From NCBI GenBank assembly GCA_965207885.1, contig OZ242311.1, positions 6,144,001 to 6,208,000 of the forward strand: a stretch of DNA of 64,000 bases. Reading direction: 5' to 3'. This DNA is from Candidatus Latescibacterota bacterium (GTDB lineage: Bacteria; Latescibacterota; UBA2968). A model generated the notes under the pieces. That model was not told the origin of the DNA. It saw only the letters and a program-made list of their open reading frames with translations, and did not search any database. The position numbers and the translations under genes were made by a program. Shown piece after piece: positions 17,152 through 48,629 of the stretch. Positions within the stretch are counted from its first letter, which is position 1. Each line of letters opens with the position of its first letter.

Positions 17152-18377
17152 AAATCCGACCCGACCTCGTTCCTGAGACCGAGCGGAACAACCTCGAAGT
17201 CATCCAGCTCACGGATGAAACGGTCCCCTCATCCCACATCTACATGGAAGCGCAGATCTTCACGCCCGACTCCCAGCGGCTAATCATTCACCGGTCTGCA
17301 CATCCCCATGGCTCTGACCCAAAGGATCCCGAGCACCAGTTCCTCATCTGCGACCTCGAAGACCATTGCAGCTTAACGCCCATCACCACCGAACTCGGAA
17401 CCACGGGACCATCCATCTCGCCCGATGGCGAATGGCTATACTACTTCGTCAACGAAACAGAACCCGGAGGCGGACGCCTGACGCTCAAACGCGTCAAGAT
17501 GGACGGAACAGAACGCGACACCATCTATGTCCTGGACCACGCCATACCCGACACCGACTTCAGATTGAGCCGACCGTATCCCCTCTCGACCATCTCATCC
17601 GACGGCAAGCGCATCGCAATCTCGGGATTCCTCGGCGACGGCAAAACCGCAGGCGCACCCTGGGGTCTCCTCGTCTTTGAAATTGAAAAGCCATCTGTAC
17701 GCCTGATCTTTCACGGACCCTCCTGGTGCAATATCCACCCACAATACACGCGCCAAACAGACCCTGAAGCCTCCCACGACATCATGATCCAGGAAAACCA
17801 CGGCAACACCGCATCGCCCGACGGCAGCGTAGAAACGCTCGTCAGTGGACAGGGCGCAGACATCCACCTGATCCGGGACGACGGATCCGCACTGCGCGAC
17901 TTCCCCTGGGGACGGGACGGAAACGAATTCTGCCAGGGGCATCAATGCTGGCAGGGACAAAGCGACATCGCCATCACCAGCACGAGCACACGCGAACCCG
18001 CTGAAAGACAACTCATCTCCGGACGCGCCGCGCCTCACATCGGCGACGAAGGCATCAACACCCCGGGTGGTTGGCGAAACGACCTCTCCCGATCCTTCGA
18101 CACGCCCGACTTCTGCCACTTCGCAACAGACATCGACGGAACGCGGTTAATCACAGACGCAGGTCCAATAGACGCGGGCGGATCAGTCTGGCTATTCGAC
18201 CTCCCCGAAGAAGAGGAAGGCGCCCTCGCAAACGCGCGGAAAGTCGCGGACCCCGGATCGTCCTGGCAAAAAAACACACACATCCACCCCTTCCTCTCCC
18301 CGGATGGACAGTCGGGCTTCTTCAACTCCGATGAAAGCGGCATATTACAGGCGTATATGGTACGCGGTTGGTCTTAA
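17148..18377 (+). CDS. Oligogalacturonate lyase-like beta-propeller (PL22-like; called ogl below)
   Basis: SHIYMEAQIFTPD; HIHPFLSPDG...FNSDESG C-terminal motif; TolB-like repeats. Confidence 0.7.
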   Translation: MKIRPDLVPETERNNLEVIQLTDETVPSSHIYMEAQIFTPDSQRLIIHRSAHPHGSDPKDPEHQFLICDLEDHCSLTPITTELGTTGPSISPDGEWLYYFVNETEPGGGRLTLKRVKMDGTERDTIYVLDHAIPDTDFRLSRPYPLSTISSDGKRIAISGFLGDGKTAGAPWGLLVFEIEKPSVRLIFHGPSWCNIHPQYTRQTDPEASHDIMIQENHGNTASPDGSVETLVSGQGADIHLIRDDGSALRDFPWGRDGNEFCQGHQCWQGQSDIAITSTSTREPAERQLISGRAAPHIGDEGINTPGGWRNDLSRSFDTPDFCHFATDIDGTRLITDAGPIDAGGSVWLFDLPEEEEGALANARKVADPGSSWQKNTHIHPFLSPDGQSGFFNSDESGILQAYMVRGWS

Positions 18378-18401
18378 GCAAAACTAAAAGGAGATACCAA
18401 A

Positions 18402-20333
18402 TTGATTCCCCGACAAGTGCTGTTTGGCAACCCAGAAAAATCCATGGCCCGAATCAGTCCCGACGGCGAGTACCTGAGCTACCTCGCGCCAGTGGCGGGC
18501 GTTTTGAACGTCTGGATCGCCGCAATAGAAGATCCCGACTCAGCCAGGCCGATCACCAAAGACAAGGAACGCGGCATCCGCTACTACGACTGGACCTATG
18601 ATGGGCAGCACATTCTGTACTACCAGGATGCCAAAGGCGACGAAGACTGGCACGTGTACGCGACGAATATCACCACAGGCGAGACCCGAGACCTGACGCC
18701 CTTTGAAAAAGTCAACGCGCAGATTCTCTCAGTCAATGAAAAGACGCCCAACGAAATCCTGATCGGCATCAACAACCGCAATCCGCAGTTGCACGACGTC
18801 TATCGAATCGCGCTTTCCACCGGCGAGCGGACCTTGATCGAAGAGAATCCGGGCTTTGTCTCTTACCTGTTCGACAACGACGACCGCACGCGTTTTGCCA
18901 TGACATTTTCGCCGACCGGGGGACAGGAGATCCTCCAACGGGACGAGAACAACCAGTGGCAACCCTTCATAGAGATTCCCAACACCGACGCCCTGACGAC
19001 CTATCTGACCGGCTTCGACAAATCAAACCAGATCCTCTATATGATCGACAGCCGCAAGCGAAACACGGCCGCCTTATTCACCCTCGACCTGGCGTCCAGC
19101 AAACGAGAACTGGTAGCCGAGAACGATCGCGCGGATGTGGGCGGGATGTTGGTTCATCCAACAGAGAAACACGTACAAGCCGTATCGTTCATTTACGACC
19201 GCAACCGCTGGCATGTGCTGGACCCAGCGATTCAAGAGGACATGGATTACTTGCACTCGGTGGAAGACGGCGAATTGTCCATCACCAGCCGCACGCTCGA
19301 CGACCGCTTGTGGACAGCGGCCTACGTCCTGGACAACGGGCCGGTCAAATACTACCTGTACGACCGCACCAGAAAGCAGGCGAATTACCTGTTCAGCAAC
19401 CGCACGGACCTGGACGAGTACCAACTGGCCAGGATGCATTCGCTGACCATCAAATCCCGCGACGGGTGGAATCTGATCAGCTATCTGACGCTCCCCCCCA
19501 ACAGCGCCCCCGACGGCGACGCTCGGCCGAGCAATCCTGTACCGCTGGTTTTACTGGTGCACGGGGGTCCCTGGGGACGCGACATCTGGGGCTACAATTC
19601 GGAGCATCAATGGCTGGCGAACCGCGGTTACGCCGTACTGAGCGTCAACTTCCGCGGCTCGACCGGCTTCGGCAAAGAGTTCACCAACGCCGGCAATGGC
19701 GAGTGGGCTGGCAAAATGCACGACGACCTGATTGACGCTGTCAACTGGGCAGTCCGTGAAAAGATCACGCAGCGCGACCAGGTGGCGATAATGGGCGGCA
19801 GCTACGGCGGATACGCGACCCTGGTCGGATTGACCTTCACCCCCGAGACATTCGTCTGCGGCGTCGATATTGTCGGCCCGAGCAACCTCGTCACGTTGCT
19901 ACAAAACGTGCCGCCTTATTGGGTCCCGATCCTCCCAATGATGAAAGACCGCGTAGGTGACTGGACGACACAGGAGGGCCAGAAATCCTTGCTCGCCAAA
20001 TCGCCGCTTGCGCGCGTAGATCAGATCCAGCGGTCTCTGCTGATCGGCCAGGGAGCCAACGACCCGCGCGTCAAACAAGTCGAATCCGATCAAATCGTAG
20101 AGGCGATGAAACAAAAAAACATCCCCGTGACCTACGTGCTTTATCCAGACGAAGGGCACGGATTCGCACGACCGGAAAACCGCTTATCGTTTTACGCCGT
20201 CGCTGAGGCGTTCTTATCCGAGCACCTGGGCGGACAGTTTGAACCGGTCGGAAAGGACTTTCAAGGAGCGAAAATTCAGGTGACAGAAGGAGCGGACCAG
20301 GTCCCCGGGCTCCAGACGGCCCTGGGTCAATGA
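18402..20333 (+). CDS. S9 family prolyl oligopeptidase/acylaminoacyl peptidase
   Basis: VHGGPW, GGSYGGY nucleophile elbow, GANDPRV, DEGHGF. Confidence 0.93.
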   Translation: MIPRQVLFGNPEKSMARISPDGEYLSYLAPVAGVLNVWIAAIEDPDSARPITKDKERGIRYYDWTYDGQHILYYQDAKGDEDWHVYATNITTGETRDLTPFEKVNAQILSVNEKTPNEILIGINNRNPQLHDVYRIALSTGERTLIEENPGFVSYLFDNDDRTRFAMTFSPTGGQEILQRDENNQWQPFIEIPNTDALTTYLTGFDKSNQILYMIDSRKRNTAALFTLDLASSKRELVAENDRADVGGMLVHPTEKHVQAVSFIYDRNRWHVLDPAIQEDMDYLHSVEDGELSITSRTLDDRLWTAAYVLDNGPVKYYLYDRTRKQANYLFSNRTDLDEYQLARMHSLTIKSRDGWNLISYLTLPPNSAPDGDARPSNPVPLVLLVHGGPWGRDIWGYNSEHQWLANRGYAVLSVNFRGSTGFGKEFTNAGNGEWAGKMHDDLIDAVNWAVREKITQRDQVAIMGGSYGGYATLVGLTFTPETFVCGVDIVGPSNLVTLLQNVPPYWVPILPMMKDRVGDWTTQEGQKSLLAKSPLARVDQIQRSLLIGQGANDPRVKQVESDQIVEAMKQKNIPVTYVLYPDEGHGFARPENRLSFYAVAEAFLSEHLGGQFEPVGKDFQGAKIQVTEGADQVPGLQTALGQ

Positions 20334-20340
20334 GAACCAC

Positions 20341-21527: not shown

Positions 21528-21584
21528 ACAGGACCTGGTCTGGGGATCGAACTCGACGAAAGCGGTCGTCAATAAACATCGTGC
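21528..21584 (+). pseudogene. Remnant copy of the 3' end of the dehydratase gene (48567-48629), cut by the TnpB element
   Basis: 30/33 identity over acaggacctgg...ctcgacgaa; continues as ATAAGGT at 22867 beyond the element. Confidence 0.85.
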
Positions 21585-21750
21585 GTGACTACTCCCAACG
21601 CTAAAGCAGTTGGGCTTCTTGGCGGTCAATCCGCCTGACGTTGTAGCCCCAACGTCAATATGTTTATCGCAGCATTGTGGTCTCTGTCCGTCTTATAGCC
21701 ACACGCCTTGCAATGATGCACACGCTCAGAAAGTGCTTTCTTCTCTCTAT
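21585..21750 (-). ncRNA. Predicted TnpB omega/reRNA scaffold (upstream boundary approximate)
   Basis: TnpB guide RNAs are known to derive from the right end overlapping the tnpB 3' end; right-end hairpin is visible; extent is inferred. Confidence 0.5.
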
Positions 21751-22750
21751 GTCCGCATGCAGAGCAATCTTGTGACGTATATTCAGGATCAACGGCCTTG
21801 AATCCAATACCAGCCTCTTCCGCTTTGTATTTGAGACAGTGCCGAAACAGGGACCATGCTACGTCTGCTATTGATTTAGCCAATCGTCTGTTCTTTTGCA
21901 TCTCTTTCACGTCCAATTTCTCTACGGCTATGAATCCGTGACGATTGACCATTTTTCTTGATTCTTGATGAGCAAAGTTATGTCGTTTATTACGGATACG
22001 CTCATGCACTCTACCAATGACTTTACGACGCTTTTCTCTTACAGCGTCGGTCTTGGGTCTTTTTTTCACCGCGTCCCATTTGCGCTGTGTTTTGGCAAGA
22101 GATTTCTCTTCTTTCCTAAAGAATCTCTGATTCTCTATTTTCTGTCCGTCACTGGTCACAGCAAAGGAATTGAGACCCACGTCAATGCCAACAGCAGAGC
22201 CAGCGGTTGGTTTCTTCTCTTTTTCGCCAATATCGCAAGAGATAGACACAAACCACTTGCCTGTTGCTGTGCGTGTGATTGTGCAAGACTTAGGGATACC
22301 CTCAAGTGACCTGTGCTGGACAATGCGAATGCAACCAATACTGCCCAATCGCAAGCCCTTGTCGTCCAATCGACATCCATTGGCAAACTGAGGATAGGTG
22401 ATAGAATCATAGCGATGCTCATTCTTGTATCTGGGAAAGCCAGCTTTCTCGCCTGTCTCTGACTTCTCTTTGAGACGCCGAAAGAATCCTTTGAATGCCA
22501 AATCTACTCTTGCTGACACTTGTTGCAACACTTGACTATATACTTGCTTGAAAGCGGCGTGTTGTTGTTTTAACAATGGTATTGTTTTGGTCTGGTCATA
22601 TTGCGAGAGAGACTTATTCTCATTTTTCCATGCTTGTATTCTGGCACAGAGTAGTTGATTATAGAGAATACGACATTCGTCAATATGCGCCAGCAAGATT
22701 TGTTCTTGCTTTTTGGTCGGACGCAATCTGTATTTGAATGATTTAACCAT
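21626..22750 (-). CDS. tnpB: RNA-guided endonuclease TnpB
   Basis: FKYRLRPT HTH; RuvC triad GIDVG / AVEKL / DRDHNAA intact; CSAC...CKAC zinc finger. Confidence 0.95.
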   Translation of the reverse strand: MVKSFKYRLRPTKKQEQILLAHIDECRILYNQLLCARIQAWKNENKSLSQYDQTKTIPLLKQQHAAFKQVYSQVLQQVSARVDLAFKGFFRRLKEKSETGEKAGFPRYKNEHRYDSITYPQFANGCRLDDKGLRLGSIGCIRIVQHRSLEGIPKSCTITRTATGKWFVSISCDIGEKEKKPTAGSAVGIDVGLNSFAVTSDGQKIENQRFFRKEEKSLAKTQRKWDAVKKRPKTDAVREKRRKVIGRVHERIRNKRHNFAHQESRKMVNRHGFIAVEKLDVKEMQKNRRLAKSIADVAWSLFRHCLKYKAEEAGIGFKAVDPEYTSQDCSACGHREKKALSERVHHCKACGYKTDRDHNAAINILTLGLQRQAD

Positions 22751-22872
22751 AATAAAAATATATACTTATATGCATTTTTTGTCAAGATTTTTATCGCTAA
22801 AGCAATACCAAAATCACAAGCCCTCATATCCCAACGCTAAAGCTGTTGGGTTTTACGGGCTGTTTGATAAGG

Positions 22873-23795: not shown

Positions 23796-26700
23796 ATGAT
23801 TTTAACTGACCTACCAGGCGATTACGCCCGAAGAATCAAAAACATCCGGGGCGTCAAAGAACTGACCCAAACGCAGTTCGCGGAGTGCATTGGTGTGTCC
23901 TATGCCTCAGTCAACCGCTGGGAGAACGGACAGTCGCGTCCCAACAATCTGGCCTGGCAACGCATCTTAGAGCTGGAAGCGTACCCCCATGATGGCATTG
24001 ATGAGGTACCGGCGATACCAGAAGTGAGATCAACATCTCCACTGAGCATGGACTTCTCCGCGAACCCGGACGCTATTTCAGCAGTCGCCGAAGCGCATCG
24101 CCTCACCTACGGACATCTTTTTAACTCTGCGTTTGCCGCTGAAACATCGTTGATCGACCCGCTACCTCATCAGCGCATCGCCGTGTACGAGCAAATGCTG
24201 CAACAGGCCCCCCTGCGATTCTTGCTCGCCGACGACGCGGGCGCCGGTAAAACGATCATGACGGGCCTGTACGTGCGCGAGATGTTGTCCCGCAGACTCA
24301 TCCGCCGCGTGCTCATCGTCCCACCTGCTGGCCTGGTTGGCAACTGGGAGCGAGAATTGCGCACCCTGTTTCACCTGCCATTCCGCATCATCAGCGGCGC
24401 AGACGCGCGAACCGGCAATCCCTTCCTTGGAGCAGAGAGTGACCGGGCAATCGTCAGCATCGACACTCTGGCCGGGGAACGCATGTTCAACTACCTCAAA
24501 GACCCGCAGACTGACGCTTATGACCTCGTCGTCTTCGACGAAGCGCACAAGCTATCCGCGAATCGCCAGCCGGACTTCAGGGTACGCAAAACGGATCGCT
24601 ACAGGCTGGCAGAAGCCCTATCTGGCGCTGAGGTAGATAGTGAAGACTGGAGACTCCCCTGGTCGGCTCAACATCTGCTATTGCTCACCGCAACGCCGCA
24701 TATGGGAAAGGATCACCCCTACTACTATCTATGGCGTCTGCTACTTCCCGACGCACTCTCTACCTATGATGCTTTCGAAGAGTTTCCCCAAGAATCTCGG
24801 CAGAAGCACTATATCCGCCGGACCAAAGAAGAGATGGTCCACTTTGATGGTTCCCCGCTATATCCACAGCGAAACTGCGACACATTGGGCTACGCACTCT
24901 CACAAGGACAAGAAAGCGAACAGGAACTCTACGACGAAACCACAGAATACATCCGGTATTATTACAACCGCGCTGGCATTTTGAACCGCTCCGCCGCCCG
25001 CCTGGCAATGAGCGTCTTCCAGCGCCGTCTCGCCAGTTCCACGTACGCCCTCCTGCGCTCCTTTGAGCGTCGCCATGAGAAACTCGAAGGACTGATTGAC
25101 GACATACAGAACGGGCGTCTCTCCGAGGAACAACTCTTACGCCAACAACGACGCCTCGACACTCTCGACGATCTCTATGAAACCCGCACTGCCGATGAGG
25201 ATGGAGAACAACAGGAGGGATTCGAGAGCGATGCTCTGGGCGGCACCATCGCGGTCAATCTCAGCGAACTGGAGACAGAACGTCTCAGGGTCGAAGAACT
25301 GTTCAACAAGGCCCAGAACCTGTACGACACTGGCGAGGAATCCAAATTCGAGAAACTGCGCGAGGTGCTCAGTAATCCGAAATACACCGACGAAAAATTC
25401 ATCATATTCACCGAGCACCGCGACACAGCGGAGTTCCTTGTGCGCCGTCTCGAAGGTCTCGGCTACACCGGTCAAGTCGCCCTGATCCACGGTGGCCTGC
25501 CGTACCAGGAAAGAGAGCGACAGGTCGAGTTTTTCCGCCGACCAGCGACGGAAGGCGGGGCCAACTATCTGGTAGCTACCGACGCCGCTGGCGAAGGTAT
25601 CAATCTGCAGTTCTGCTGGCTGATGGTCAACTACGACATCCCCTGGAATCCGGCGCGGCTCGAACAGCGGATGGGTCGTATCCATCGCTACGGACAAACG
25701 CACGATCCCGTAGTCATAATCAACTTGGTGTCCAGCGGCACGCGCGAGGGGCGGGTCTTGAAAACCCTTCTCGACAAGCTGGAGGCGATCCGACGACAAC
25801 TCCAATCTGACAAGGTCTTCGACGTCGTAGGCCGTCTGTTTGAAGAATACTCCATGAAGGACTATCTCGAACAAGCGATCACCGAAGACGCCGATACCCT
25901 TGCCGAACAACTGGAAGGCGATCTCACTGAAGAGCAAGTCCGTGCTCTCGAACAAAAGGAGCGCATGATCTATGGGGAAGGTGGCGAAGTGCGTAGCCGA
26001 TTACCCCATCTCAAAAAGGAAGCAGAGCAGGAAAACTACCGCCGGCTGCTGCCCGGATACGTGCGACGCCTCGTGGAAAAAGCCGCACCGCTACTCGACC
26101 TGCACATTGAAGGGGACCCCGAAGAAACCTTCACCCTGGTACCTGCTCGACCTCGTGCAGCTGATCCCCTGCTATCCGCACTTGAGTTGTATCCCGAAAG
26201 CGCGTGGAATCGACTGACAGTGTACAAGCCATTCACTCGCGAAAACGCGATCTGGCTACACCCCGGCGAGCCGGTATTCGACAGCATCTCTGCAACGATC
26301 CTGAATCGATTCAAACACGAGGGACTAAAAGGAGCCATATTCATCGATCCTTACGCAACCGAGCCGTATCTGTTCCACATCGCACTCATTTCCGTCGAAC
26401 AACACAGCCAGGTCAACACACAGGAGACCAATCTGCTATCTGCCCTCAATAATGACGAAACAGCCCCGAAACTGCTCGAATCGCGACTGGTCGGACTGCG
26501 CCAACTAAGCGATGGTACCGTAGAGGAGTGTGCGGTCGAGCATCTTCTTCTCCTCAGAGGTGCCCATGGCATTGCCCCGAGCCGGGTGCCACTTGCCACT
26601 TTTGCTCGCACCATGGCTCAGGATGCCGCCAATTTTATCCGCGATGAAGTGACCCAACGACTCGCACAAACACATCGACAGCGCATCCTCAACGATCTAC

Positions 26701-27392
26701 CCTCACGCATGGACTTTGTCAACCGCGGCTTCGACTTCCAGGCAGCCGAACTCGCAGCAGCCCGATCCCATCTCACCCAAAGGGCACGCACTGGTGATAG
26801 GCATGCCAATACAGAACTCACCAGAGTCAAAGAACAACAACGAAGCCTGACGGATCTCCGCAACCGTCGCCTCGCCGAACTACAAACCGAACCGGACCTC
26901 ATCCAGGCTGGTGAAATGGAATTCCTCGTCCATGCCCTCGTGGTACCCGTCCAGGATACCGGGGAAACCGAGCGTTACGATGCCGATGTCGAAGCCATTG
27001 CCGTAAAAGTCGCCACCGCCTACGAGGAAAGTTTTGGCGCTGAGGTCCAGGATGTCTCACGCCCCGAACTCGCACGGCGCGCGGGACTAACCGACTGGCC
27101 GGGCTTTGACCTCAGATCCCGCCATCCCGCAAATGACCAAAGCAACGCAGAAGAACGCGCCATCGAAGTCAAAGGCCGCGCTGGCTCCGGTAATATTCAA
27201 ATGAGCGAAAACGAATGGGCCAGAGCCTGCAACCTGCGCGATGATTACTGGCTCTATGTCGTCTTCGACTGCGCCACGCCACGCCCACGCCTCGTGAGAG
27301 TGCGCGACCCATTTGGCAAACTACTCGTCAGAACCCACGAATCTATTGCATTCACTATCACCTCAGGGGAACTGTTGGAAGCCGCCGAGTAA
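23796..27392 (+). CDS. XRE-HTH + SNF2-family helicase + DUF3883 (NOV-C-like) nuclease
   Basis: LTQTQFAECIGVSYASVNRWENG; ADDAGAGKT; DEAH; TATPH; QRMGRIHRYGQ; PGFDL...IEVKG...SENEW. Confidence 0.92.
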   Translation: MILTDLPGDYARRIKNIRGVKELTQTQFAECIGVSYASVNRWENGQSRPNNLAWQRILELEAYPHDGIDEVPAIPEVRSTSPLSMDFSANPDAISAVAEAHRLTYGHLFNSAFAAETSLIDPLPHQRIAVYEQMLQQAPLRFLLADDAGAGKTIMTGLYVREMLSRRLIRRVLIVPPAGLVGNWERELRTLFHLPFRIISGADARTGNPFLGAESDRAIVSIDTLAGERMFNYLKDPQTDAYDLVVFDEAHKLSANRQPDFRVRKTDRYRLAEALSGAEVDSEDWRLPWSAQHLLLLTATPHMGKDHPYYYLWRLLLPDALSTYDAFEEFPQESRQKHYIRRTKEEMVHFDGSPLYPQRNCDTLGYALSQGQESEQELYDETTEYIRYYYNRAGILNRSAARLAMSVFQRRLASSTYALLRSFERRHEKLEGLIDDIQNGRLSEEQLLRQQRRLDTLDDLYETRTADEDGEQQEGFESDALGGTIAVNLSELETERLRVEELFNKAQNLYDTGEESKFEKLREVLSNPKYTDEKFIIFTEHRDTAEFLVRRLEGLGYTGQVALIHGGLPYQERERQVEFFRRPATEGGANYLVATDAAGEGINLQFCWLMVNYDIPWNPARLEQRMGRIHRYGQTHDPVVIINLVSSGTREGRVLKTLLDKLEAIRRQLQSDKVFDVVGRLFEEYSMKDYLEQAITEDADTLAEQLEGDLTEEQVRALEQKERMIYGEGGEVRSRLPHLKKEAEQENYRRLLPGYVRRLVEKAAPLLDLHIEGDPEETFTLVPARPRAADPLLSALELYPESAWNRLTVYKPFTRENAIWLHPGEPVFDSISATILNRFKHEGLKGAIFIDPYATEPYLFHIALISVEQHSQVNTQETNLLSALNNDETAPKLLESRLVGLRQLSDGTVEECAVEHLLLLRGAHGIAPSRVPLATFARTMAQDAANFIRDEVTQRLAQTHRQRILNDLPSRMDFVNRGFDFQAAELAAARSHLTQRARTGDRHANTELTRVKEQQRSLTDLRNRRLAELQTEPDLIQAGEMEFLVHALVVPVQDTGETERYDADVEAIAVKVATAYEESFGAEVQDVSRPELARRAGLTDWPGFDLRSRHPANDQSNAEERAIEVKGRAGSGNIQMSENEWARACNLRDDYWLYVVFDCATPRPRLVRVRDPFGKLLVRTHESIAFTITSGELLEAAE

Positions 27393-39451: not shown

Positions 39452-39506
39452 AGCCGCCCGCGACAATATCCAGGCACCGGGGCAGAAACAACTCCAATTC
39501 GGATAG
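39452..39506 (+). repeat. Diverged direct copy of the DUF1156 gene 3' end (37685-37736)
   Basis: 46/52 identity; AARDNIQAPGQKQLQFG* versus AARDNIQKPGQRQLQFGGAEG*. Confidence 0.9.
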
Positions 39507-39519
39507 ATATAAAATCGTT

Positions 39520-41606: not shown

Positions 41607-44600
41607 ATGACGCGAAAACTCCCCCATAAACCCTGGCACGAAGTCGTGCAACTACGCGACGACCTGAAGACCGGCGAACTCTCGCTGGCCGTATTTGCCG
41701 CTGACCTGTACGACGTGGTCATGCAAAAGGGCCAACGACCAGTTTACGAAGATCCCGACAAGTTCTTCGCCCTCACCTTCCCCACCTACAACCTGCGGGA
41801 ACTGGTCAAAGATGTGTGTCTCCGCCTGGCCGGTAAGACCGACAAGGCGTATCGAAAACTCTCCGTCAACTACGGCGGCGGCAAAACCCATACCCTCATC
41901 GCCCTCAGACATCTGGCACACGACCCGGACGCGCTGCCCGATCTGCCAGCAGTCCGGGAGTTTGAGGCCCATATTGGCTTCAAGCCGCCAAAAGCACGGA
42001 TAGCGGCACTGTGCTTCGACAAGATCGACCTGGAAAAAGGCGTCGAAACAACCGGACCCGATGGCACCATTAGAATGCTCAAGCACCCCTGGAGCATTCT
42101 CGCCTTTCAATTGGCGGGGGCTGACGGCCTCAAGCTCATCCACGCCGAGGGCAAAGACGAAGAGCGCGAAACACCACCCGCGGAACCGTTGGTTGTAGAA
42201 CTGCTATCGAGACCACAAGAAGACGATCTCTCAACCCTGATTCTCCTCGACGAAGTATTGATGTATATCCGCACAAAAGCGGAAAATGACCCGGACTGGC
42301 GTGGGCGGCTAATGAGCTTCTTCCAATACCTCACGCAAGCCGTTGTAAAGGTAGATCGCTGCGCCATGGTAGCCTCACTACTCGCCTCCGATCCAGGAAA
42401 ACATGACAGCCTGGGAAACGAATTATTTCAAGACATATCCGACGTCTTTGGCCGCCAGATGGAAGAAGACGCCAGTCCCGTAAGCAAAGAGGACGTGGCA
42501 GAAGTTCTGCGACGCCGTTTCTTCAAACCCGAGTCCATTAGCGATCAGGGCATTTTCCGTCCCCATGTGACCTCAGTAGTGGGTAGCATCGCCGCACTCG
42601 ACGAACAGACCAAAAAAGAGCAAGGAACCGCAGAAGAACGCTATATAGATAGCTATCCCTTTCATCCGGACCTCACCGAAATCTTCTACACTCGCTGGAC
42701 CCAAATCGAAGGATTCCAGCGCACCCGCGGCATCCTGCGAACATTTGCCATTGCCCTGCGCGATGCGGAAAAGTGGGACACAAGCCCGCTGGTGGGGCCA
42801 AATGTGTTTTTGAACGACCCGGAAAAGACCGACCTATCCGAAGCCGCAGGAGAACTCGCATCCTTTGCCAGTGTTGACACAGAAACAGGCAGTCATCATG
42901 AATGGGGTCCCATTCTCGAAGGCGAACTTGGCAAAGCGCGTGAGATCCAATCCGAAGCGACGGGTCTGCGCCACCGGGAAATCGAACAAGCAGTCATTTC
43001 AGTATTTCTGAGTTCTCAGCCAATCGGTCAAAAGGCATCGACACAAGAGTTGCTCGTACTGCTCGGAGCAGCCAACCCGGACAAGATAGAATTGGAAAAA
43101 GCCCTGCGTCGCTGGACCGAACTGTCCTGGTTTTTAGACGAAGTGGAGATCTCTGCAGGAGAACCCGACTCAAGCGACCAGTTGCCGAGGGCATGGCGAC
43201 TGGGCAATCGCCCCAACCTGCGCCAGATGCACCACGACGCCTGTAATATGCGCGTACCAGACACACTCGTAAAATCACAGGTCATCGATGCCATCGAAAA
43301 ACTCAGGGAACTTACCACGGGCGCATCAGCGGCCGGGGCAAGAGTTCACACCTTGCCGGAACGCCCGCAGGATATCGCAGACGATGGCGAGTTTCACTAC
43401 GCAGTCCTCGGTCCAAAAGCAGCCTCAGAATCCGGCAAACCCAGCGCGGAAGTGAAGCGGTTCATAAACGAGACGACTGCGCCTGACCGTCCCCGGGTCT
43501 ATCGCAACGCTATCGTCCTCGCCGTTCCCTCCAGAGATGGTCTCGATGCCGTGCACACGCGGGTTCGAGAGTATCTGGGTTGGCAAGAAGTCCGCGAACA
43601 ACTCAGCGGCCAGCAGATCGATCCCATTCGTCAACAGATGCTCGCCGATGAGATAAGAACGGCAAGCAAACGCATCCCGGATGCGATCAGGCAGGCATAC
43701 TCCATAGTCGTGACCGTCAACGAAAGCAATGATATCCATGCTTTCAAAATCGTGATAACCGACGAGCCTTTATTCACGATCATCAAAGCCGACAAGCGAT
43801 CTCGCATCCAGGAAACTGCGATCAGCGCAGAGGCGATGATGCCGGGCGGTCCCTACGACTTGTGGCGAGAAGACGAGCAATCCCGCCGGGTTAAGGATCT
43901 GGTTGGTGCTTTTGCGCAGTTCCCAAAACTACCCAAGATGCTACGATCAAAGGAGATTCTGGATACGGTCGTACAAGGGGTCCAACAGGGAATCTGGGTG
44001 GCACAGATCGTACGACCAGACCGCACAACAAAGACATTCTGGCAAACCACTATTGATGAGCCTGCTCTCAAAGACTCCAGTCTGGAGGTATGGCTGCCTG
44101 AATTTGCCACACTGAGCGAACTCGCGCCCGATTTGTTGGCGTATCAGAAGCTCCCGGGACTCTGGTCGGGCGAAGAGATTAGTGTCCAGAAGGTGTACGA
44201 CTACTTCGCTGGTGGTCACACCGTGAGCGTGCCCAAAGAGGGCTACGAAGAAACACTCACCATCCCGAAATGCGAATCAGCAGATGTCGAGACCGCGATT
44301 TCACAAGCCGTAGAACAAGGACTGGTGTGGTTGACCAGCGGACCGGCATCTATCCTAAAGGAGCCTGTCCCTGCTGGCGTGCTCAGTGCCTCTGCGATAT
44401 TGCGATCCCCACCCGAGCGGATCGAGGTTGCCGAACTGATGGGCGATTCGATCCCAGATGCGTGGAAAAACGATAAGACAAACGCCCTCGCCATTGCCAC
44501 TGCGCTCTCCGCCCAGCGAGACATGACCCTCCCCTGGCACACAGTAAAAACGGCGATAGATGATGGTATCCGCGCGCGATGGATCGAACTCAGCGACAGC

Positions 44601-44921
44601 AACATCACATGGCCCTGCGACATCAATGGTGCCCAGCATGTGGTCCTTCAGATTCCTCAAAACGAAAAAATTCGCGAGGATGAAAAGGACCGCTACCAGC
44701 CGACGCCATCGGGAATGCTTATTGCAGAAGCTGCCCTGGAAGCCAACGGCATCCAGGATTTGGCGGATCAGATTCCGGACATAGCTAAAGCAGCGGTCGG
44801 CAGTAGCCTTAAGTTTAACGTCCGTATCGAGTTCAGCGGAGAAACCACGCCCGATCCAGAGCAAGTACAAAAGATCAACGAGTTGCTCTCTGATGTGTCC
44901 GATGACCTAAAGCTCACTTGA
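41607..44921 (+). CDS. DUF499 AAA+ ATPase
   Basis: KPWHEVV, FAADL, YGGGKTH, ILLDEV, SYPFHP, FQRTRGILR. Confidence 0.92.
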   Translation: MTRKLPHKPWHEVVQLRDDLKTGELSLAVFAADLYDVVMQKGQRPVYEDPDKFFALTFPTYNLRELVKDVCLRLAGKTDKAYRKLSVNYGGGKTHTLIALRHLAHDPDALPDLPAVREFEAHIGFKPPKARIAALCFDKIDLEKGVETTGPDGTIRMLKHPWSILAFQLAGADGLKLIHAEGKDEERETPPAEPLVVELLSRPQEDDLSTLILLDEVLMYIRTKAENDPDWRGRLMSFFQYLTQAVVKVDRCAMVASLLASDPGKHDSLGNELFQDISDVFGRQMEEDASPVSKEDVAEVLRRRFFKPESISDQGIFRPHVTSVVGSIAALDEQTKKEQGTAEERYIDSYPFHPDLTEIFYTRWTQIEGFQRTRGILRTFAIALRDAEKWDTSPLVGPNVFLNDPEKTDLSEAAGELASFASVDTETGSHHEWGPILEGELGKAREIQSEATGLRHREIEQAVISVFLSSQPIGQKASTQELLVLLGAANPDKIELEKALRRWTELSWFLDEVEISAGEPDSSDQLPRAWRLGNRPNLRQMHHDACNMRVPDTLVKSQVIDAIEKLRELTTGASAAGARVHTLPERPQDIADDGEFHYAVLGPKAASESGKPSAEVKRFINETTAPDRPRVYRNAIVLAVPSRDGLDAVHTRVREYLGWQEVREQLSGQQIDPIRQQMLADEIRTASKRIPDAIRQAYSIVVTVNESNDIHAFKIVITDEPLFTIIKADKRSRIQETAISAEAMMPGGPYDLWREDEQSRRVKDLVGAFAQFPKLPKMLRSKEILDTVVQGVQQGIWVAQIVRPDRTTKTFWQTTIDEPALKDSSLEVWLPEFATLSELAPDLLAYQKLPGLWSGEEISVQKVYDYFAGGHTVSVPKEGYEETLTIPKCESADVETAISQAVEQGLVWLTSGPASILKEPVPAGVLSASAILRSPPERIEVAELMGDSIPDAWKNDKTNALAIATALSAQRDMTLPWHTVKTAIDDGIRARWIELSDSNITWPCDINGAQHVVLQIPQNEKIREDEKDRYQPTPSGMLIAEAALEANGIQDLADQIPDIAKAAVGSSLKFNVRIEFSGETTPDPEQVQKINELLSDVSDDLKLT

Positions 44922-44990: not shown

Positions 44991-45025
44991 AAGGAAATTT
45001 AGACACAAAATCGAAAGGACTGAGA

Positions 45026-45313: not shown

Positions 45314-45317
45314 GCGT

Positions 45318-45839: not shown

Positions 45840-47441
45840 ATGACGACAACAGCCATGCGTTTCTTCAACACTGCCGGCCCCATCGATGCGGAGATACACT
45901 ACCACATCCCGCCCCTGGCGCGGCTCGATGTCGATGATCTTCTGCTGCTCATCCAGCAGCGGAAGTACTTCGTCCTGCACGCGCCTCGCCAGACCGGCAA
46001 GACCTCCGCGCTCCTCGCGCTGAAAGACGACCTCAATGCCAGCGGCGAGTTCCGCTGTGCGTACGTCAACGTCGAAATCGGACAAGCGGCACGGGAAGAT
46101 GTGGCCGCGGCCATGCGGGCGATTCTCAGCGCGCTGGGTCGTGCTGCACGCCACACGCTGGACGACTTGTTCGTCTCTCAAATCTGGCCCGGCATTCTCG
46201 ATGGTGCCGGTCCCAACGACGCGCTGGGGGAGACCCTTGCACGCTGGGCCGAGTCGGACGCCAGACCGCTGGTACTCATGATTGACGAGATCGACGCGCT
46301 GATCGGCGATACCCTGCTGTCCGTGCTGCGACAATTGCGCGCGGGCTACCCGGAGCGTCCGCGACGATTTCCACAGAGCGTGATCCTGTGCGGTGTGCGC
46401 GATGTGCGCGATTACCGCATCCAATCTTCCGCCGAGAATGCCATCATCGCCGGGGGCAGCGCGTTCAATATCCGCGCCGAGTCCCTGCGGCTGGGAGACT
46501 TCTCCCGCGACGACGTCGAATCGCTGCTGGCGCAACACACCGCAGAGACCGGACAGGCACTCGCCGAGGAGGCACGTGCCGCGATCTGGGAACTGACTCA
46601 GGGCCAGCCATGGCTGGTCAACGCGCTGGCCTACGAAGCCTGCTTCAAGAACAAGGCCGGACGCGACCATAGCCAGTCAATCACCGCCGACGCCATCCAG
46701 GACGCCCGCGAACAGTTGATCCGCCGACGCGAAACACACCTGGACCAACTCACCGACAAGCTCCAGGAGGAACGGGTGCGCCGGGTAATCGAACCACTAC
46801 TAAAAGGATCAGATGAAGCTGGCTCATTCGCCGACGACGACCTGCAGTACGTACGCGACCTGGGCCTCGTGCGCACCGACAATCCAATTGCCATTGCCAA
46901 CCCAATTTATCGCGAGGTAATCCCGCGCGACCTCACCTACACCACCCAGGCGGGCTTTCACCATGACCCGACCTGGTACATTGATGCTAACGGCACCCTG
47001 CAAGTAGGCAAGTTGCTGGCCGCGTTCCAGGCGTTTTTCCGCGAGCACTCCGAGCACTGGATAGAGCGGTTCCAGTACAAGGAAGCCGGTCCGCAGTTGT
47101 TGCTACAGGCATTTTTGCAGCGCATCATCAACAGCGGTGGGCGGATTGAACGCGAGTATGGCCTGGGTCGCAGGCGCACGGATTTGCTGGTAATATGGCC
47201 GGTGGGCGGGGATTCCAGCAGAATACAGAAGGTCGTCATTGAGTGCAAGCTACTGCACCGGAGTCTGGAGCAGACATTGCGCGACGGGCTTGAGCAAACA
47301 CGCGCCTACATGGACCGCTGCGCGACGGTGGAAGGACACCTCGTGCTCTTTGACCGCACCGAGGATAAGTCATGGGACGACAAGGTGTATCGCCGCGATG
47401 AAACCGAAGGCGGCGCACCGGTCACGGTGTGGGGAATGTGA
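45840..47441 (+). CDS. AAA-like ATPase with C-terminal PD-(D/E)XK nuclease
   Basis: RFFNTAGP, APRQTGKT, MIDEID, REYGLGRRRTDL...VIECK. Confidence 0.85.
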   Translation: MTTTAMRFFNTAGPIDAEIHYHIPPLARLDVDDLLLLIQQRKYFVLHAPRQTGKTSALLALKDDLNASGEFRCAYVNVEIGQAAREDVAAAMRAILSALGRAARHTLDDLFVSQIWPGILDGAGPNDALGETLARWAESDARPLVLMIDEIDALIGDTLLSVLRQLRAGYPERPRRFPQSVILCGVRDVRDYRIQSSAENAIIAGGSAFNIRAESLRLGDFSRDDVESLLAQHTAETGQALAEEARAAIWELTQGQPWLVNALAYEACFKNKAGRDHSQSITADAIQDAREQLIRRRETHLDQLTDKLQEERVRRVIEPLLKGSDEAGSFADDDLQYVRDLGLVRTDNPIAIANPIYREVIPRDLTYTTQAGFHHDPTWYIDANGTLQVGKLLAAFQAFFREHSEHWIERFQYKEAGPQLLLQAFLQRIINSGGRIEREYGLGRRRTDLLVIWPVGGDSSRIQKVVIECKLLHRSLEQTLRDGLEQTRAYMDRCATVEGHLVLFDRTEDKSWDDKVYRRDETEGGAPVTVWGM

Positions 47442-47477
47442 GGGCACTGATGGAAACTGCTGAGTAACTCAGAAAGA
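47442..47477 (+). repeat. Diverged direct copy of the helicase 3' end (27367-27402)
   Basis: 31/36 identity, ending in identical gagtaactcagaaaga; ALMETAE* versus ELLEAAE*. Confidence 0.8.
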
Positions 47478-47501
47478 GATCAAAACAGGAGCACATCACC
47501 C

Positions 47502-48626
47502 ATGAAAATCACCGACGTGGAAACTATCGTAATCCAAAACATCCAGCCCTATCGCGGGGGAAGATACTGGCTCTTTGTCCAGCTCATCACCGACGAAGGC
47601 ATCGTCGGACTGGGCGAGCGACCCTCGGGAAATGCCACTAATCTGGACTCCCAAATCAGCCTCATCAAAAACCTGTGTCAGCAATTCGCCATCGGCACAA
47701 GCCCCTTTGACATCGAAAGCCTGTGGCAGCGCATCTTTGCGTCCCGGCACGACTATCGCCATCCCGGCCTCGACGCAACACCCGCCTTGAGCGCCATTGA
47801 AATGGCGTGTTGGGACATCGTCGGCAAAGCATTGAACCAGCCCATCTACAATCTACTCGGCGGCAGAGTCCACGACAAACTCAGGGCTTATGCCTACATG
47901 CCGACCGACGGCATCTGGGAAAATCCAGAACGCGCAGGTGAGATCGCAACCCGTCTGGTCGCAGACGGAAACACCGCCTGCAAATTCGACCCCTTCCACC
48001 CGATCTTTCCCAACCCGCGCGACTTCCCACTCAAAACCATCCGCCACGTCGCCAAAATATTTAAAAGCATCCGGGATGCAGTCGGCGACGAATTGGAAAT
48101 CGGCATCGGCACCCACGGACAATTCAGCACATCTGGCGCAATCCGCGTGGCAAAAGAACTGGAAGAATTTAGCCCCTTCTGGTTTGAAGAACCCGTCCCT
48201 CCGGAAAACATCGACGAAATGGCCCGCGTCGCCGCCCACACCAGCATCCCAATCGCCACAGGCGAACGACTCGTCACCAAATACGAATTTGCCGAACTCC
48301 TTAAAAAACAGGCCGCGCAGATCCTTCAATTAGACGTGGGACAATGTGGCGGGATATTGGAATCCAAAAAAATCGCCAGCATGGCCGAAGCCCACTACGC
48401 CCTCATCGCGCCCCACATGTATTGCGGACCCGTCGCCGCAGCCGCCGCGGTGCAACTCGACACATGCTCGCCGAACTTTCTGATCCAGGAATTCAACGCC
48501 AACGACCTCCACAGCGAAATATTCGTAGAACCAATCCAATTTGAAAGCGGCTATATCACCCCGCCAACAGGACCTGGTTTAGGGATTGAACTCGACGAAT
48601 CAATGGTTGCCAAACACCGCGCATAA
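47502..48626 (+). CDS. Mandelate racemase/enolase-superfamily acid-sugar dehydratase
   Basis: SAIEMACWDIVGK, WFEEP, ATGERL, PTGPGLGIELD. Confidence 0.9.
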   Translation: MKITDVETIVIQNIQPYRGGRYWLFVQLITDEGIVGLGERPSGNATNLDSQISLIKNLCQQFAIGTSPFDIESLWQRIFASRHDYRHPGLDATPALSAIEMACWDIVGKALNQPIYNLLGGRVHDKLRAYAYMPTDGIWENPERAGEIATRLVADGNTACKFDPFHPIFPNPRDFPLKTIRHVAKIFKSIRDAVGDELEIGIGTHGQFSTSGAIRVAKELEEFSPFWFEEPVPPENIDEMARVAAHTSIPIATGERLVTKYEFAELLKKQAAQILQLDVGQCGGILESKKIASMAEAHYALIAPHMYCGPVAAAAAVQLDTCSPNFLIQEFNANDLHSEIFVEPIQFESGYITPPTGPGLGIELDESMVAKHRA

Positions 48627-48629
48627 GGT

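Follow-up and report, generated by a model that had tools for sequence, protein, structure and literature searches.

Diverged gene ends between the stacked defence cargoes of an Hma operon look like recombination scars rather than the work of an insertion enzyme

In the Hma (helicase-methylase-ATPase) anti-phage systems, embedded genes have been found in 62.7% of 1,485 cases; 3.1% of the embedded genes are mobility-associated and 96.7% are co-oriented (Payne et al., 2024). In integrase-free T6SS immunity arrays and Rhs orphans, the mechanism that we favour below was proposed earlier (Kirchberger et al., 2017). The sequential displacement proposed there for T6SS, Rhs, and CDI arrays is closely analogous to the process considered here. 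The locus described below adds a footprint of gene embedding in Hma systems, which is new and concerns a question left open by Payne et al. (2024).

The window (the whole 64,000-nucleotide stretch analysed, from contig OZ242311.1 of a Candidatus Latescibacterota bacterium) holds a backbone that is, according to its Pfam and PADLOC assignments, a chromosomal Hma anti-phage operon with three genes: (i) HmaA, with HTH, SNF2 helicase, and NOV_C domains (23796..27392; E = 1.8e-172); (ii) HmaB, a DUF1156 DNA methyltransferase (34587..37751; E = 2.3e-122); and (iii) HmaC, a DUF499 ATPase (41607..44921; E = 7.1e-74). Unless stated otherwise, the features named here lie on the forward strand, and gene families are those of Pfam. 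The operon is flanked by a prenyltransferase-like gene on one side and a dehydratase of the mandelate racemase/enolase family (47502..48626), the right core flank, on the other. The left core flank is an ogl-like gene with a PD40 beta-propeller (17148..18377); next to it come an S9 peptidase (18402-20333) and the prenyltransferase-like gene (20341-21309). In some alleles, HmaA is succeeded by a small gene, orf99 (27411..27710). Whole genes distinguish eight further alleles of this chromosomal locus (B, G001, G002, G004, G078, G088, G095, and pieces in run X23). Orthologues of the ogl-like gene are 91–97% identical in B, G001, G004, and G002. The S9 peptidase and the prenyltransferase-like gene are its native neighbours in B, G001, and G004, and G002 and G095 lack the peptidase.

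At least six further defence or toxin-antitoxin modules are stacked in the operon, all co-oriented; the cargo types are OLD-family, AriAB-like, PDC-M07, pentapeptide, AAA_22, and two PIN toxin-antitoxin modules. The first cargo contains an IS605-family TnpB-only element on the reverse strand (21582..22786; ORF 21626-22750), which the genome has in about 12 copies or relatives. Downstream lie an antitoxin-like ORF (22938-23192) and a PIN toxin (23189-23602), a pair shared with locus B at 97%. The product of orf586 (27764..29359), first called as a 586-aa ORF, has 531 aa from its true start at 27764 and is 94% identical to the G002 copy. It is followed by a DUF2806 protein (29497-30531) and an OLD-family ATPase-TOPRIM nuclease (30583-32499; GajA and Old in PADLOC), and homologues of one or the other directly precede HmaB in L021, L025, L026, L028, L031, L032, L036, and L059. 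The AriAB-like cargo (32673..34496; PADLOC AriAB, E = 2e-59), a PARIS-type fused ATPase, was detected in none of 167 further genomes from the phylum. Relatives of the pentapeptide-repeat protein (37898..39451) occur at 45–51% in 2 of these 167 genomes and at 36–44% in metagenome contigs. The HTH gene (39520-39771, from a corrected start at 39520), a PDC-M07A ABC ATPase (39768-41027; also PADLOC), and orf187 (41024-41587) form a module often found between HmaB and HmaC. After HmaC lie an antitoxin-like orf95 (45026-45313), with a 91% paralogue at genome position 2263584, its PIN_3 toxin (45297-45743), and an AAA_22 ATPase, predicted to be a STAND-like NTPase (45840..47441), with orthologues of 94–98% in G004, G078, G088, and G095.

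The earlier note had reported seven direct-repeat pairs, each a copy of the end of a gene of this locus. All seven were recovered at its coordinates by a repeat-family search and gapped local alignment (36–107 nt, 81–91% identity). The ogl 3′ pair (18326-18387/23605-23664) aligns over 60 nt at 83%, and its resident copy comprises the final 52 nt of the gene and 10 nt downstream. The dehydratase region carries the resident copies of two repeats, one 3′ (48567-48625) and one 5′ (47481-47523). The 3′ copy pairs with 21528-21560 over 33 nt at 91% (48567-48599), and against locus B the match is longer (59 nt at 81%); the 5′ copy pairs with 44955-44997 (43 nt, 81%). HmaB likewise carries two, paired at its 5′ end (34587-34671/32496-32572; 77 nt aligned, 88%, with an 8-nt gap) and at its 3′ end (37685-37736/39452-39503; 52 nt, 88%). 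The remaining pairs belong to the 3′ ends of HmaA, the helicase of the earlier note (27367-27402/47442-47477; 36 nt, 86%), and of orf99 (27608-27714/29382-29488; 107 nt, 85%). Two further stubs had not been listed there, a prenyl-like 3′ stub (23665-23688) and a clan-AA aspartic protease 3′ stub (27711-27763).

The repeats exceed chance, as self-BLAST of positions 17001-49000 (E ≤ 0.01, length 28–400) returned 7 direct and 0 inverted repeats; across 81 sequences the figures were 96 and 23. Backbone copies were found for 15 of 415 termini vs. 17 of 1955 interiors (OR 4.3, P = 1e-4). Genome-wide, copies were terminus-only in 136 of 9,706 windows and interior-only in 47 of 4,853, a modest enrichment. 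Copies of backbone termini occur in 11 of the 80 Hma sequences examined, so that they are no obligatory signature of embedding. The statement that the copies share no common core was borne out, since k-mer sharing across 16 junction windows did not exceed that of random windows (P ≥ 0.43), and the same windows showed no hairpin excess. Most stubs do start close to the preceding stop codon, as had been noted, with spacings of 0 (the HmaB 3′ stub after the pentapeptide gene and the HmaA 3′ stub after AAA_22), 2 (the PIN stop to the ogl 3′ stub), −4 (the OLD stop, overlapped by the HmaB 5′ stub), 22, 33, and 218 nt. Stubs starting exactly 0 nt past a stop codon number three, and every stub measures at most 120 nt.

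Empty sites were sought in the relatives, as the earlier note had suggested, and they are present, with split points that coincide with the repeats. The HmaB|HTH junction is empty in G001 and G004, split exactly at the 52-nt repeat. The HmaC|dehydratase junction lacks cargo in G001 and G002, as does the prenyl|HmaA junction in G001, G002, and G004. The Hma genes are absent from B, G088, and G095; G088 retains the protease, orf99, and HEC-01, and G095 retains AAA_22 with an identical HmaA stub. The backbone itself is a mosaic: M07A is 96.6% identical to G001 vs. 84.0% to G004, and over the last third of HmaB, identity is 92.0% to G004 vs. 88.8% to G001. Coding DNA of the relatives differs by 8–10%.

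The stubs correspond to former neighbours and to other alleles. The dehydratase 3′ stub (21528..21586), in which only 12 codons are recognisable and which extends to the left boundary of the TnpB element, agrees at 32 of 33 positions with the G001 dehydratase vs. 30 of 33 with the resident gene. The ogl 3′ stub differs from the resident ends of A and B at 13–14 of 62 positions and has derived states in common with the G002 ogl allele. The protease gene is intact in G001, G002, G004, G078, and G088, and its stub adjoins orf586, whose native leader it forms, in the same arrangement in G002. The HmaB 3′ stub (39452..39518), the final 67 nt of a different HmaB allele, ends 1 nt before the HTH start; comparison with G001 and G004 identifies it as the leader that the HTH gene natively has. 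The dehydratase 5′ stub, with 21 nt of leader and 22 nt of coding sequence, stands after HmaC at a spacing that is native in G001 and G002. The HmaA 3′ stub is 36/36 identical in G095, which lacks Hma genes, and in G088 AAA_22 has no HmaA stub behind it. In the HmaB 5′ stub (32496..32591) the former ATG is now ATA, overlapping the OLD stop; an 8-nt deletion has spared a conserved 32-nt block. The same block is kept in HmaB 5′ stubs of independent genomes, which end at about +50 to +106, and L045 has an array of units of cargo plus HmaB 5′ stub, one with a stop/start overlap. By the sequence comparisons, stubs become shorter with time: orf99 is full length at the equivalent position in G002 and reduced here to 107 nt, ending 8 nt before the DUF2806 start, and the prenyl-like stub has 24 nt here and 120 nt in locus B.

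At its truncation point, the prenyl-like stub shares 9/10 nt of microhomology with the spacer that precedes HmaA; the left junction of the protease stub has a microhomology of about 5 nt, and the right junction of the dehydratase 5′ stub one of about 5 nt (GGAAA). These are all three of the junctions for which both parents could be approximated. At the left edges of five repeats, the cargo end has no identity to the sequence upstream of the resident copy; microhomology is thus not universal. For the AriAB-like, pentapeptide, and toxin-antitoxin cargo, 167 phylum genomes and metagenome contigs contained no parental alleles and only distant relatives (2 genomes and 2 contigs), which leaves most junctions without a reading against both parents.

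We consider that the stubs probably arose through homology-facilitated illegitimate recombination (HFIR) or unequal crossover between alleles with different cargo loads, and were later trimmed by deletions. The population contains many alleles of the locus, each with its own load. One end of incoming allele DNA would cross over within a shared backbone gene, and the other would join illegitimately, either blunt or via 5–10 nt of microhomology. Where this joint falls “backwards” along the operon, the cargo of both alleles would be retained, and the piece of backbone gene trapped between them would form a diverged direct copy. Later deletions would strip sequence that is not under selection; on the left they would reach no further than the stop codon of the gene there, and on the right no further than the leader or ribosome-binding region of the next gene, which is why the surviving stubs of 24–107 nt would resemble gene ends. 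Such trimming and selection could account for the 0-nt starts and for the lengths of at most 120 nt. Their shortness and divergence would make RecA-mediated deletion inefficient, so that the stubs persist, and exchange between alleles would keep orientation automatically. The interpretation in the earlier note is therefore partly supported. Its integrase-free accretion is borne out: the window has no tyrosine or serine recombinase, the junctions have no shared core or hairpin, and neither a RecT nor, within ~380 kb of the locus, a reverse transcriptase was found. The dedicated “sequence-flexible route” is unneeded, as alleles supply the empty junctions, stubs match former neighbours, and junctions are blunt or carry 5–10 nt of microhomology; nor is a host gene end regenerated, the stubs being leftovers of the cargo's former neighbour in another allele. 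The repeats look like recombination scars.

A self-propagating, RecA-driven cassette seems unlikely. Recombination between repeat copies would excise a circle of cargo plus one copy, which would re-insert by a single Campbell-type crossover into alleles sharing the gene end; conserved stretches, e.g., the first ~100 nt of HmaB, would in effect serve as attachment sites. Every unit of cargo plus stub is indeed a circular permutation of such a circle, and the HmaB block recurs in stubs of the window, G001, G004, L024, L045, and L062 (longest exact match to the resident 32 nt here; 103 nt at 96% in L062). Its slightly reduced synonymous variation (0.70 vs. 0.80, P = 0.004) may point to a favoured site of recombination. 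Both Hma-containing and Hma-less alleles have AAA_22 with the same HmaA stub, but these instances may be orthologous by descent rather than separate insertions, and the stub lies beside no other AAA_22 paralogue in the genome. The longest exact matches within pairs are 10–32 nt, and at most 18 nt in 5 of 7, which makes a poor RecA substrate; the search for a RecT-type annealing protein found none, events differ in the length and end points of their stubs, and stubs decay. Four runs yielded neither circles nor repeat-to-repeat deletion joints, a weak test on contigs only. In-situ tandem duplication with differential loss in one lineage, the copies diverging in place without allelic exchange, appears improbable. 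Elsewhere in the genome, terminus-only direct remnants do lie within apparent diverged tandem segmental duplications (e.g., 2.905–2.920 Mb, offsets ~9–11 kb), and L088 has two tandem HmaB genes. Given the coding divergence of relatives, neutral stubs could reach 10–19%, and an old duplication is compatible with 81–91% pair identity taken alone. However, the cargo between copies differs every time and is never duplicated, the stubs share derived states with alleles of other lineages, the backbone is mosaic relative to G001 and G004, and up to eight tandem copies with many precise deletions would be required.

Insertion in trans by a site-specific recombinase, whether from a distant tyrosine integrase, from an integron-like system, or from TnpB/IS605, is very improbable and already largely refuted. 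Four tyrosine recombinases are encoded elsewhere in the genome, and insertions recur at a few junctions (e.g., epim2|ogl in B, G002, and G004), but the window has no tyrosine recombinase, serine recombinases number zero in window and genome alike, and the 16 junctions share no core, k-mer, or hairpin. The 24–107 nt repeats are unrelated in sequence and do not sit at IS ends, and the junction microhomologies look random. The claim that no transposase accounts for the repeats holds in that none explains them, but a TnpB (IS605 OrfB) lies inside the first cargo, immediately next to the dehydratase 3′ stub. An assembly artefact, in which reads of co-occurring strains were joined into chimeras, is an extremely improbable source of the repeats, although the window probably represents the haplotype of a second strain, joined through an IS: its locus is a second copy of genome 66–129 kb (94–98.6% identical), is attached behind a multi-copy IS, is not syntenic with the left flank, and reaches the end of the contig within a tandem repeat; estimated genome contamination is 5.03%. 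Against an artefact, orthologous stubs occur in the separately assembled G001, G004, L024, G078, and G095, and a run of another study contains pieces of orf586, OLD, AriAB, and the pentapeptide gene with 0–1 differences. Independent k-mer contigs from two runs of the sample in which the island occurs cover 27560-47559 with 0 differences at even depth. A single contig (27560-32543) bridges the orf99, protease-stub, orf586, orf99-stub, DUF2806, and OLD junctions, and another (34615-39857) the HmaB, pentapeptide, HmaB-stub, and HTH junctions, so that the island itself is supported despite the haplotype caveat.

By the PADLOC definition, the locus is an Hma defense system with a predicted anti-phage role: HmaA, an SNF2/DEAD helicase (1.8e-172), HmaB (2.3e-122), and HmaC (7.1e-74) are intact and all lie on the + strand, and the backbone is also supported in Pfam by SNF2/Helicase_C, DUF1156, and DUF499. 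According to the ORF map and family scans of window 17–49 kb, every gene in this region but TnpB is on the + strand. The left flank consists of an ogl-like gene, an S9 peptidase gene, and a prenyltransferase-like (prenyl) gene, followed by a stub (a short diverged copy of a gene end) of the dehydratase 3′ end, the TnpB element, a VapB-like/PIN pair, an ogl 3′ stub, and a prenyl 3′ stub. HmaA (HTH, SNF2, and NOV_C) and orf99 come next, and then an aspartic-protease 3′ stub, orf586, and an orf99 3′ stub; DUF2806, an OLD-family nuclease, an HmaB 5′ stub, and an AriAB-like ATPase; HmaB (DUF1156 methylase), a pentapeptide-repeat protein, and an HmaB 3′ stub; and HTH, PDC-M07A, orf187, and HmaC (DUF499). 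The right end is made up of a dehydratase 5′ stub, orf95/PIN_3, AAA_22, an HmaA 3′ stub, and the dehydratase gene. The ORFs orf99, orf586, orf187, and orf95, the VapB-like ORF, a 426-aa ORF at 48791, and a 1,219-aa ORF of relatives have no match in NCBIfam, Pfam, or PADLOC. A palindromic AT-rich stretch is conserved upstream of HmaA (window 23695–23760, with equivalents in the relatives' genomes G001, G088, and G095), beside a promoter-like site at 23719–23747; since HmaA starts with an HTH domain, the palindrome may be a putative autoregulatory operator.

The seven direct-repeat pairs that an earlier note had picked out by eye were all recovered in place, at 36–107 nt and 81–91% identity, and they are the sole matches in a self-BLAST of window 17001–49000 (7 direct, 0 inverted). 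Two additional stubs, the 24-nt 3′ end of the prenyl gene (23665–23688) and the 53-nt 3′ end of a clan-AA aspartic protease gene that is intact in relatives (27711–27763), bring the total in the window to nine, all in direct orientation. In several cases, the stub starts 0–2 nt past the preceding stop codon. The longest exact match within a repeat pair is 10–32 nt, and in 5 of the 7 pairs it does not exceed 18 nt. A protein-level search for a dehydratase remnant upstream of 21528 recognized only 12 residues and nothing longer. Consensus scans of the stubs for promoters and terminators were at background (20 vs. 16.5 ± 3.9; 22 vs. 20.4 ± 3.9) and are thus uninformative for this phylum.

As judged from sequence comparison, each stub is the native neighbor context of the cargo next to it. 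The OLD gene terminates with a stop codon that overlaps what was once the start codon of the HmaB 5′ stub, and eight other loci have a DUF2806 or OLD homologue immediately upstream of HmaB. Likewise, the HmaB 3′ stub stops 1 nt short of the true start of HTH, matching the arrangement in G001 and G004, the protease stub runs into orf586 just as in G002 (these three genomes being close relatives), and the dehydratase 5′ stub stands at native spacing downstream of HmaC. What looks like the left boundary of the pentapeptide insertion is natural variation of the HmaB C-terminal tail, because another Hma locus (L035) has the same tail, which leaves one novel junction per event rather than two. The ogl stub differs at 13–14 of 62 positions from the resident ends of both the window's copy of the locus (A) and the second copy in the same assembly (B), and has derived states in common with G002. 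The dehydratase 3′ stub is identical to G001 at 32 of 33 positions, vs. 30 of 33 for the resident gene. Decay is visible as well: the orf99 stub is 107 nt here vs. full length in G002, and the prenyl stub is 24 nt here vs. 120 nt in B, having been cut at a 9/10-nt microhomology. Microhomology of 5–10 nt is present at each of the 3 junctions whose two parents could be approximated (about 5 nt at two of them); it is absent at five repeat left edges, and other junctions look blunt or have parents that are not known.

The same chromosomal locus is present in A, in the three close relatives, and as four further alleles (B, G078, G088, and G095, the last three from relatives' genomes). The identity of A to G001, G002, and G004 is 89–93%, for core and Hma genes alike, and to B it is 94–98.6%, while the alleles differ from one another by whole genes. 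In G001, HmaC runs straight into the dehydratase gene and HmaB straight into the HTH gene. G004 and G078 have HmaC, a 38-nt prenyl stub, an HmaA-3′-like leader, AAA_22, an HmaA stub, and the dehydratase gene; G002 has HmaA, the protease gene, orf586, full-length orf99, and the 1,219-aa ORF, then HmaB. Three alleles are devoid of Hma genes: in B, the dehydratase gene is preceded by an ogl stub and then a prenyl stub of 120 nt; in G095 (locus L117, 12641–17960), prenyl is followed by AAA_22, an HmaA stub identical to that of the window at 36 of 36 positions, and the dehydratase gene; and in G088 (locus L114, 11430–18337), prenyl is followed by AAA_22, the protease gene, orf99, HEC-01A/B, and the dehydratase gene. 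Simpler or intermediate alleles, comprising empty junctions and partial forms, are thus found in B, G001, G002, G004, G078, G088, and G095. The empty sites in relatives that the earlier note had anticipated do exist: mapped onto A, the empty junctions split exactly at the repeats, with overlaps of 52 nt at HmaB/HTH and 26–29 nt at HmaC/dehydratase. Since G088 and G095 keep cargo that is embedded elsewhere without having Hma genes themselves, cargo can outlive its host operon, which bears on how defense islands are interpreted.

Parental alleles were sought for three cargo modules and none was found. For the pentapeptide cargo, a metagenome protein scan gave only 2 loci at 36–44% identity, and across the phylum there are distant hits in 2 of 167 genomes; for the AriAB-like cargo, 0 of 167 phylum genomes had a candidate. 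That G004 arose by simple recombination between a G001-like and a G095-like parent is only partly borne out, because the AAA_22 leader differs between G004 and G095. In G088 and G095, which belong to the same genus and lack HmaA, HmaB, and HmaC, AAA_22 sits under the Hma promoter region. AAA_22 itself is a large paralogous family, with up to 19 matches per same-genus genome at 67–74% identity to the query stretch; paralogues in the source genome lie at 241560, 2671779, and 4097381. A conserved ORF of about 1,215–1,219 aa lies between the small gene and HmaB in G001, G002, and G004 (e.g., 2930–6589 of L104, a relative's locus) and is absent in A.

Presence/absence differences extend beyond the Hma operon. 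In B, the junction of epim2 (the gene left of ogl) and ogl contains a separate 7.6-kb insertion (genome 72103–79723; locus L107), which starts with an HTH homologue (87% to window 39519–39780) and 70 nt from the orf95/PIN_3 junction and continues with a 291-aa ORF, an Eco57I-like N6 methyltransferase, a GHKL ATPase, and a 381-aa ORF. At the same junction, G002 has a related 11-kb insertion and G004 a 2-kb insertion of PDC-M07A and orf187. No clean gene-end duplication was found at epim2/ogl; what B, G002, and G004 have upstream of ogl is only a 3′ fossil resembling PIN_3. Immediately downstream from the dehydratase gene, A has 2.25 kb (window 48629–50879) with the 426-aa ORF and smaller ORFs, vs. 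87 bp in B.

The reading of the array as integrase-free accretion held up: there is no tyrosine or serine recombinase in the window, and no motif or hairpin is shared by the junctions. The four tyrosine recombinases of the genome (PF00589) lie at 0.66, 1.70, 4.84, and 5.82 Mb, and no serine recombinase was found in the whole genome. Among 16 junction windows, no shared k-mer rises above random expectation, and there is no excess of hairpins (mean MFE −15.9 vs. −18.1 ± 5.4). Site-specific recombination was therefore rejected. An integron was likewise dismissed, with no IntI next to the array (no PF00589 match in the window) and no attC-like inverted repeats at cassette boundaries, as was an integrase-mediated island with att duplication, which would carry a tyrosine or serine recombinase inside the element. 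A reverse-transcriptase route was rejected because the reverse transcriptases of the genome are found only at 3.12, 4.08, and 5.77 Mb, none within ~380 kb, and RecT-mediated insertion because the genome, estimated to be 97% complete, has no RecT match. The earlier note overlooked a TnpB element at 21582–22786. As the sole transposon-type gene, TnpB sits in one cargo only and was rejected as the cause, and the repeats, at 24–107 nt and 81–91% identity, do not lie at the TnpB ends as a target-site duplication would. This element is a TnpB-only member of the IS605 family with about 10 further copies or relatives in the genome (72–97% identical), and its left end adjoins the stop codon of the dehydratase 3′ stub.

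The dedicated new route of insertion proposed in the earlier note is not needed. Most simply, the array is accounted for by recombination among alleles of the locus with different cargo loads. According to this proposal, one joint would be homologous and the other illegitimate, i.e., homology-facilitated illegitimate recombination (HFIR) or unequal crossover, and deletional trimming would follow, its extent limited by selection acting on the ORFs to either side and on the downstream gene's leader. Such a process would explain why the copies are diverged and in direct orientation, why the pairs interleave, and why 5′ and 3′ stubs are mixed. The 0-nt distances to stop codons would be explained because native spacers in these operons are about −4 to 50 nt. 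The minimal homology for RecA is roughly 25 bp or more. Given exact matches of 10–32 nt, mostly ≤18 nt, the stubs would be stable once formed. The locus has the features of an HFIR array: it grows at a conserved operon without a site-specific recombinase, anchor-gene fragments are kept in direct orientation beside older cargo (the nine window stubs; the array of HmaB stubs in locus L045), the illegitimate joints have short or no microhomology, and simpler intermediate alleles exist in relatives. Accretion in this defense operon is thus most simply read as HFIR-type with its footprints preserved.

An alternative is that the embedded cassettes are truly mobile, with conserved backbone gene ends serving as portable homology arms or attachment sites, such that cassettes excise as circles and re-insert by general recombination. 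The main arm would be the initial ~100 nt of the gene for the DUF1156 methylase, near-identical across phyla, and the targets would be other Hma operons, possibly also BREX, DISARM, or type I R-M. If true, the integron would have an integrase-free counterpart here, and the co-orientation of embedded genes and their lack of mobility genes would be explained. The ends of HmaB 5′ stubs cluster just past the conserved block, which would be in keeping with a de facto attachment site, and the synonymous diversity of that block is slightly reduced (0.70 vs. 0.80, P = 0.004). Neither circles nor repeat-to-repeat deletions appear among the joints listed for four sequencing runs, as represented in Logan contigs rather than raw reads, and the one joint that goes back 19918 is the HmaA 3′ repeat cross-matching itself. 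Mobility of this kind is considered unlikely.

Stubs are also found beyond this locus. In 80 Hma loci plus the window, short repeats are direct in 96 cases vs. 23 inverted (85 vs. 12 without the repeat-rich locus L064). A direct copy elsewhere in the locus was seen for 15 of 415 windows at the termini of HmaA, HmaB, and HmaC vs. 17 of 1,955 interior windows (OR 4.3, P = 1e-4); one locus with two tandem HmaB genes contributes six of those 17. Locus L045 has three HmaB 5′ stubs in series with different cargo ahead of each, L062 has one of 103 nt at 96% identity, and a single orthologous HmaB 5′ stub, in front of a HEC-01 cassette, is common to G001, G004, and locus L024. Throughout the genome, terminus-only direct copies occur for 136 genes (9,706 terminal windows) vs. 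47 with interior-only copies (4,853 windows), the inverted counterparts being 8 and 5, and the 50-kb bin of the window is in the top three for copies located between genes. Since such copies occur in several Hma loci and genome bins, with a backbone-terminus copy in just 11 of the 80 Hma sequences, the footprint is recurrent and general, being neither obligatory nor specific to Hma. Other clusters of terminus-only direct gene-end remnants lie at genome ~1.12–1.15, 2.60–2.63, and 2.90–2.95 Mb (31–110 nt, 78–97% identical, 1–11 kb apart), and some of these fall inside apparent diverged tandem segmental duplications.

Defense genes found embedded within Hma, BREX, DISARM, and type I R-M operons are a productive source of new anti-phage systems. 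Embedding in Hma has been described by Payne et al. (2021) and in a preprint (Payne et al., 2024; 10.1101/2024.01.29.577857), according to parts of which 62.7% of 1,485 Hma systems have embedded genes, 96.7% of these genes being co-oriented and 3.1% mobility-associated; anti-phage activity is reported there for embedded candidates of loci other than this one. Similarly, the window has the HmaA/HmaB/HmaC backbone with co-oriented defense cassettes between hma genes, overlapping cargo types (ABC-ATPases, e.g., HEC-01 and PDC-M07; OLD/TOPRIM; PIN), and almost no mobility genes. In contrast, its stacked modules exceed the maximum of that search, three embedded genes between hma genes, and the backbone gene-end stubs beside cargo are not described in the main-text parts of the preprint considered here. 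In those parts, embedding is used for discovery, its origin is left open, the term “recombination” never appears, and the significance of embedding “remains to be explored” (Payne et al., 2024). Among the papers listed in literature searches, no title or abstract links gene-end stubs to embedding; the supplements to Payne et al. might bear on this point. Exchange of alleles would account for both the co-orientation and the near absence of mobility genes reported for embedded systems. The backbone stubs, the empty and intermediate alleles, and the microhomology joints preserved in this locus and its relatives are footprints of embedding that, at the level of sequence, suggest that alleles of one operon with different cargo loads have exchanged DNA. 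The HFIR mechanism is not surprising; what appears to be new is its likely footprints in a defense operon, which make the open question of embedding directly testable. Through backbone-terminus stubs, the testing can be done at scale, and stubs can be used as markers of the former neighbors of a cargo and thus of the order of events.

Sequential displacement driven by HFIR has been put forward for T6SS effector-immunity arrays and Rhs orphans (Kirchberger et al., 2017; PMC5361080), with Rhs/CDI orphan arrays as a second source for comparison (PMC8189183). As set out in parts of these sources, such arrays share with the window integrase-free accretion at a conserved operon by repeated events, a proposed homologous anchor in a conserved gene with an illegitimate joint, and the shifting along of older modules and gene fragments in direct orientation. 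They are anchored in a toxin gene's constant 5′ part, whereas the anchors in the window are several different backbone genes; they accumulate immunity genes and 3′ toxin fragments, whereas the window accumulates anti-phage systems and TA pairs, and its stubs are of both 5′ and 3′ type, trimmed to 24–107 nt (PMC5361080; PMC8189183). Integron arrays resemble the window in the promoter-proximal stacking of co-oriented, mostly promoterless cassettes of one or few genes each, but the repeats here copy neighboring genes rather than a cassette-borne site, and IntI, attC-like hairpins, and a core site are absent. As with islands and prophages integrated in gene 3′ ends, where an att duplication restores the gene, cargo is bracketed by a direct repeat that is the 3′ end of a target that stays intact (ogl, HmaB, and orf99); unlike them, the window has no integrase, at least seven different “sites” that include 5′ ends, and repeats that are 9–19% diverged, in pairs interleaved rather than nested. 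Minimal mobile elements of Neisseria are cargo without mobility genes of their own, exchanged from strain to strain via homology in conserved flanking genes, with clean replacement by a double homologous crossover. The cargo of the window likewise has no mobility genes of its own and would be exchanged through conserved neighbors, but it shows accretion and trapped gene-end stubs, which are absent from that model.

The island itself is soundly assembled. Logan contigs from two runs of the holder sample cover 27560–47559 with no differences and even depth, and most junctions are bridged by single Logan contigs, with breaks only at exact repeats of 28–32 nt. A run of another study has pieces of orf586, OLD, AriAB, and the pentapeptide gene with 0–1 differences, and a run of a third study has the B-type, Hma-less junction. 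The genome is one 6.23-Mb contig, whose last 73 kb (window 11264 to contig end, genome 6155264–6228721) is collinear with genome 66234–129205 at 93–98.6% identity. This stretch follows directly on a multi-copy DDE IS and runs out in a giant tandem repeat. The upstream flank of B is syntenic with two relatives, while the first 10 kb of the window has its match in two relatives on the opposite strand, at a distance of 300–550 kb. Because left-flank synteny fails for A while that of B holds, A is probably the haplotype of a second strain, appended through the IS by the assembler. This DDE_Tnp_1 insertion sequence (window 10050–11270; ORF 10121–11245) has about 25 genome copies at 99–100% identity, and a second family has about 20 copies at ~83.5%. 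The tandem repeat is a giant gene or gene array of ~681-bp units (81–88% identical) at window 64772 onward (genome 6208772–6228721), within which the contig ends, and also at genome 111800–129205.

The closest relatives of HmaB are from Latescibacterota MAGs. HmaB is also present at 70–93% protein identity (loci L009–L088) in MAGs titled Binatia, Dehalococcoidia, Caldilineaceae, Poribacteria, and others, and this identity across several phyla suggests that the Hma operon moved between phyla recently. One Hma locus (L088, 10001–16650) has two full-length tandem HmaB genes, 73–81% identical in the windows compared. According to run metadata, the runs holding the DNA of the window are mostly sponge metagenomes.
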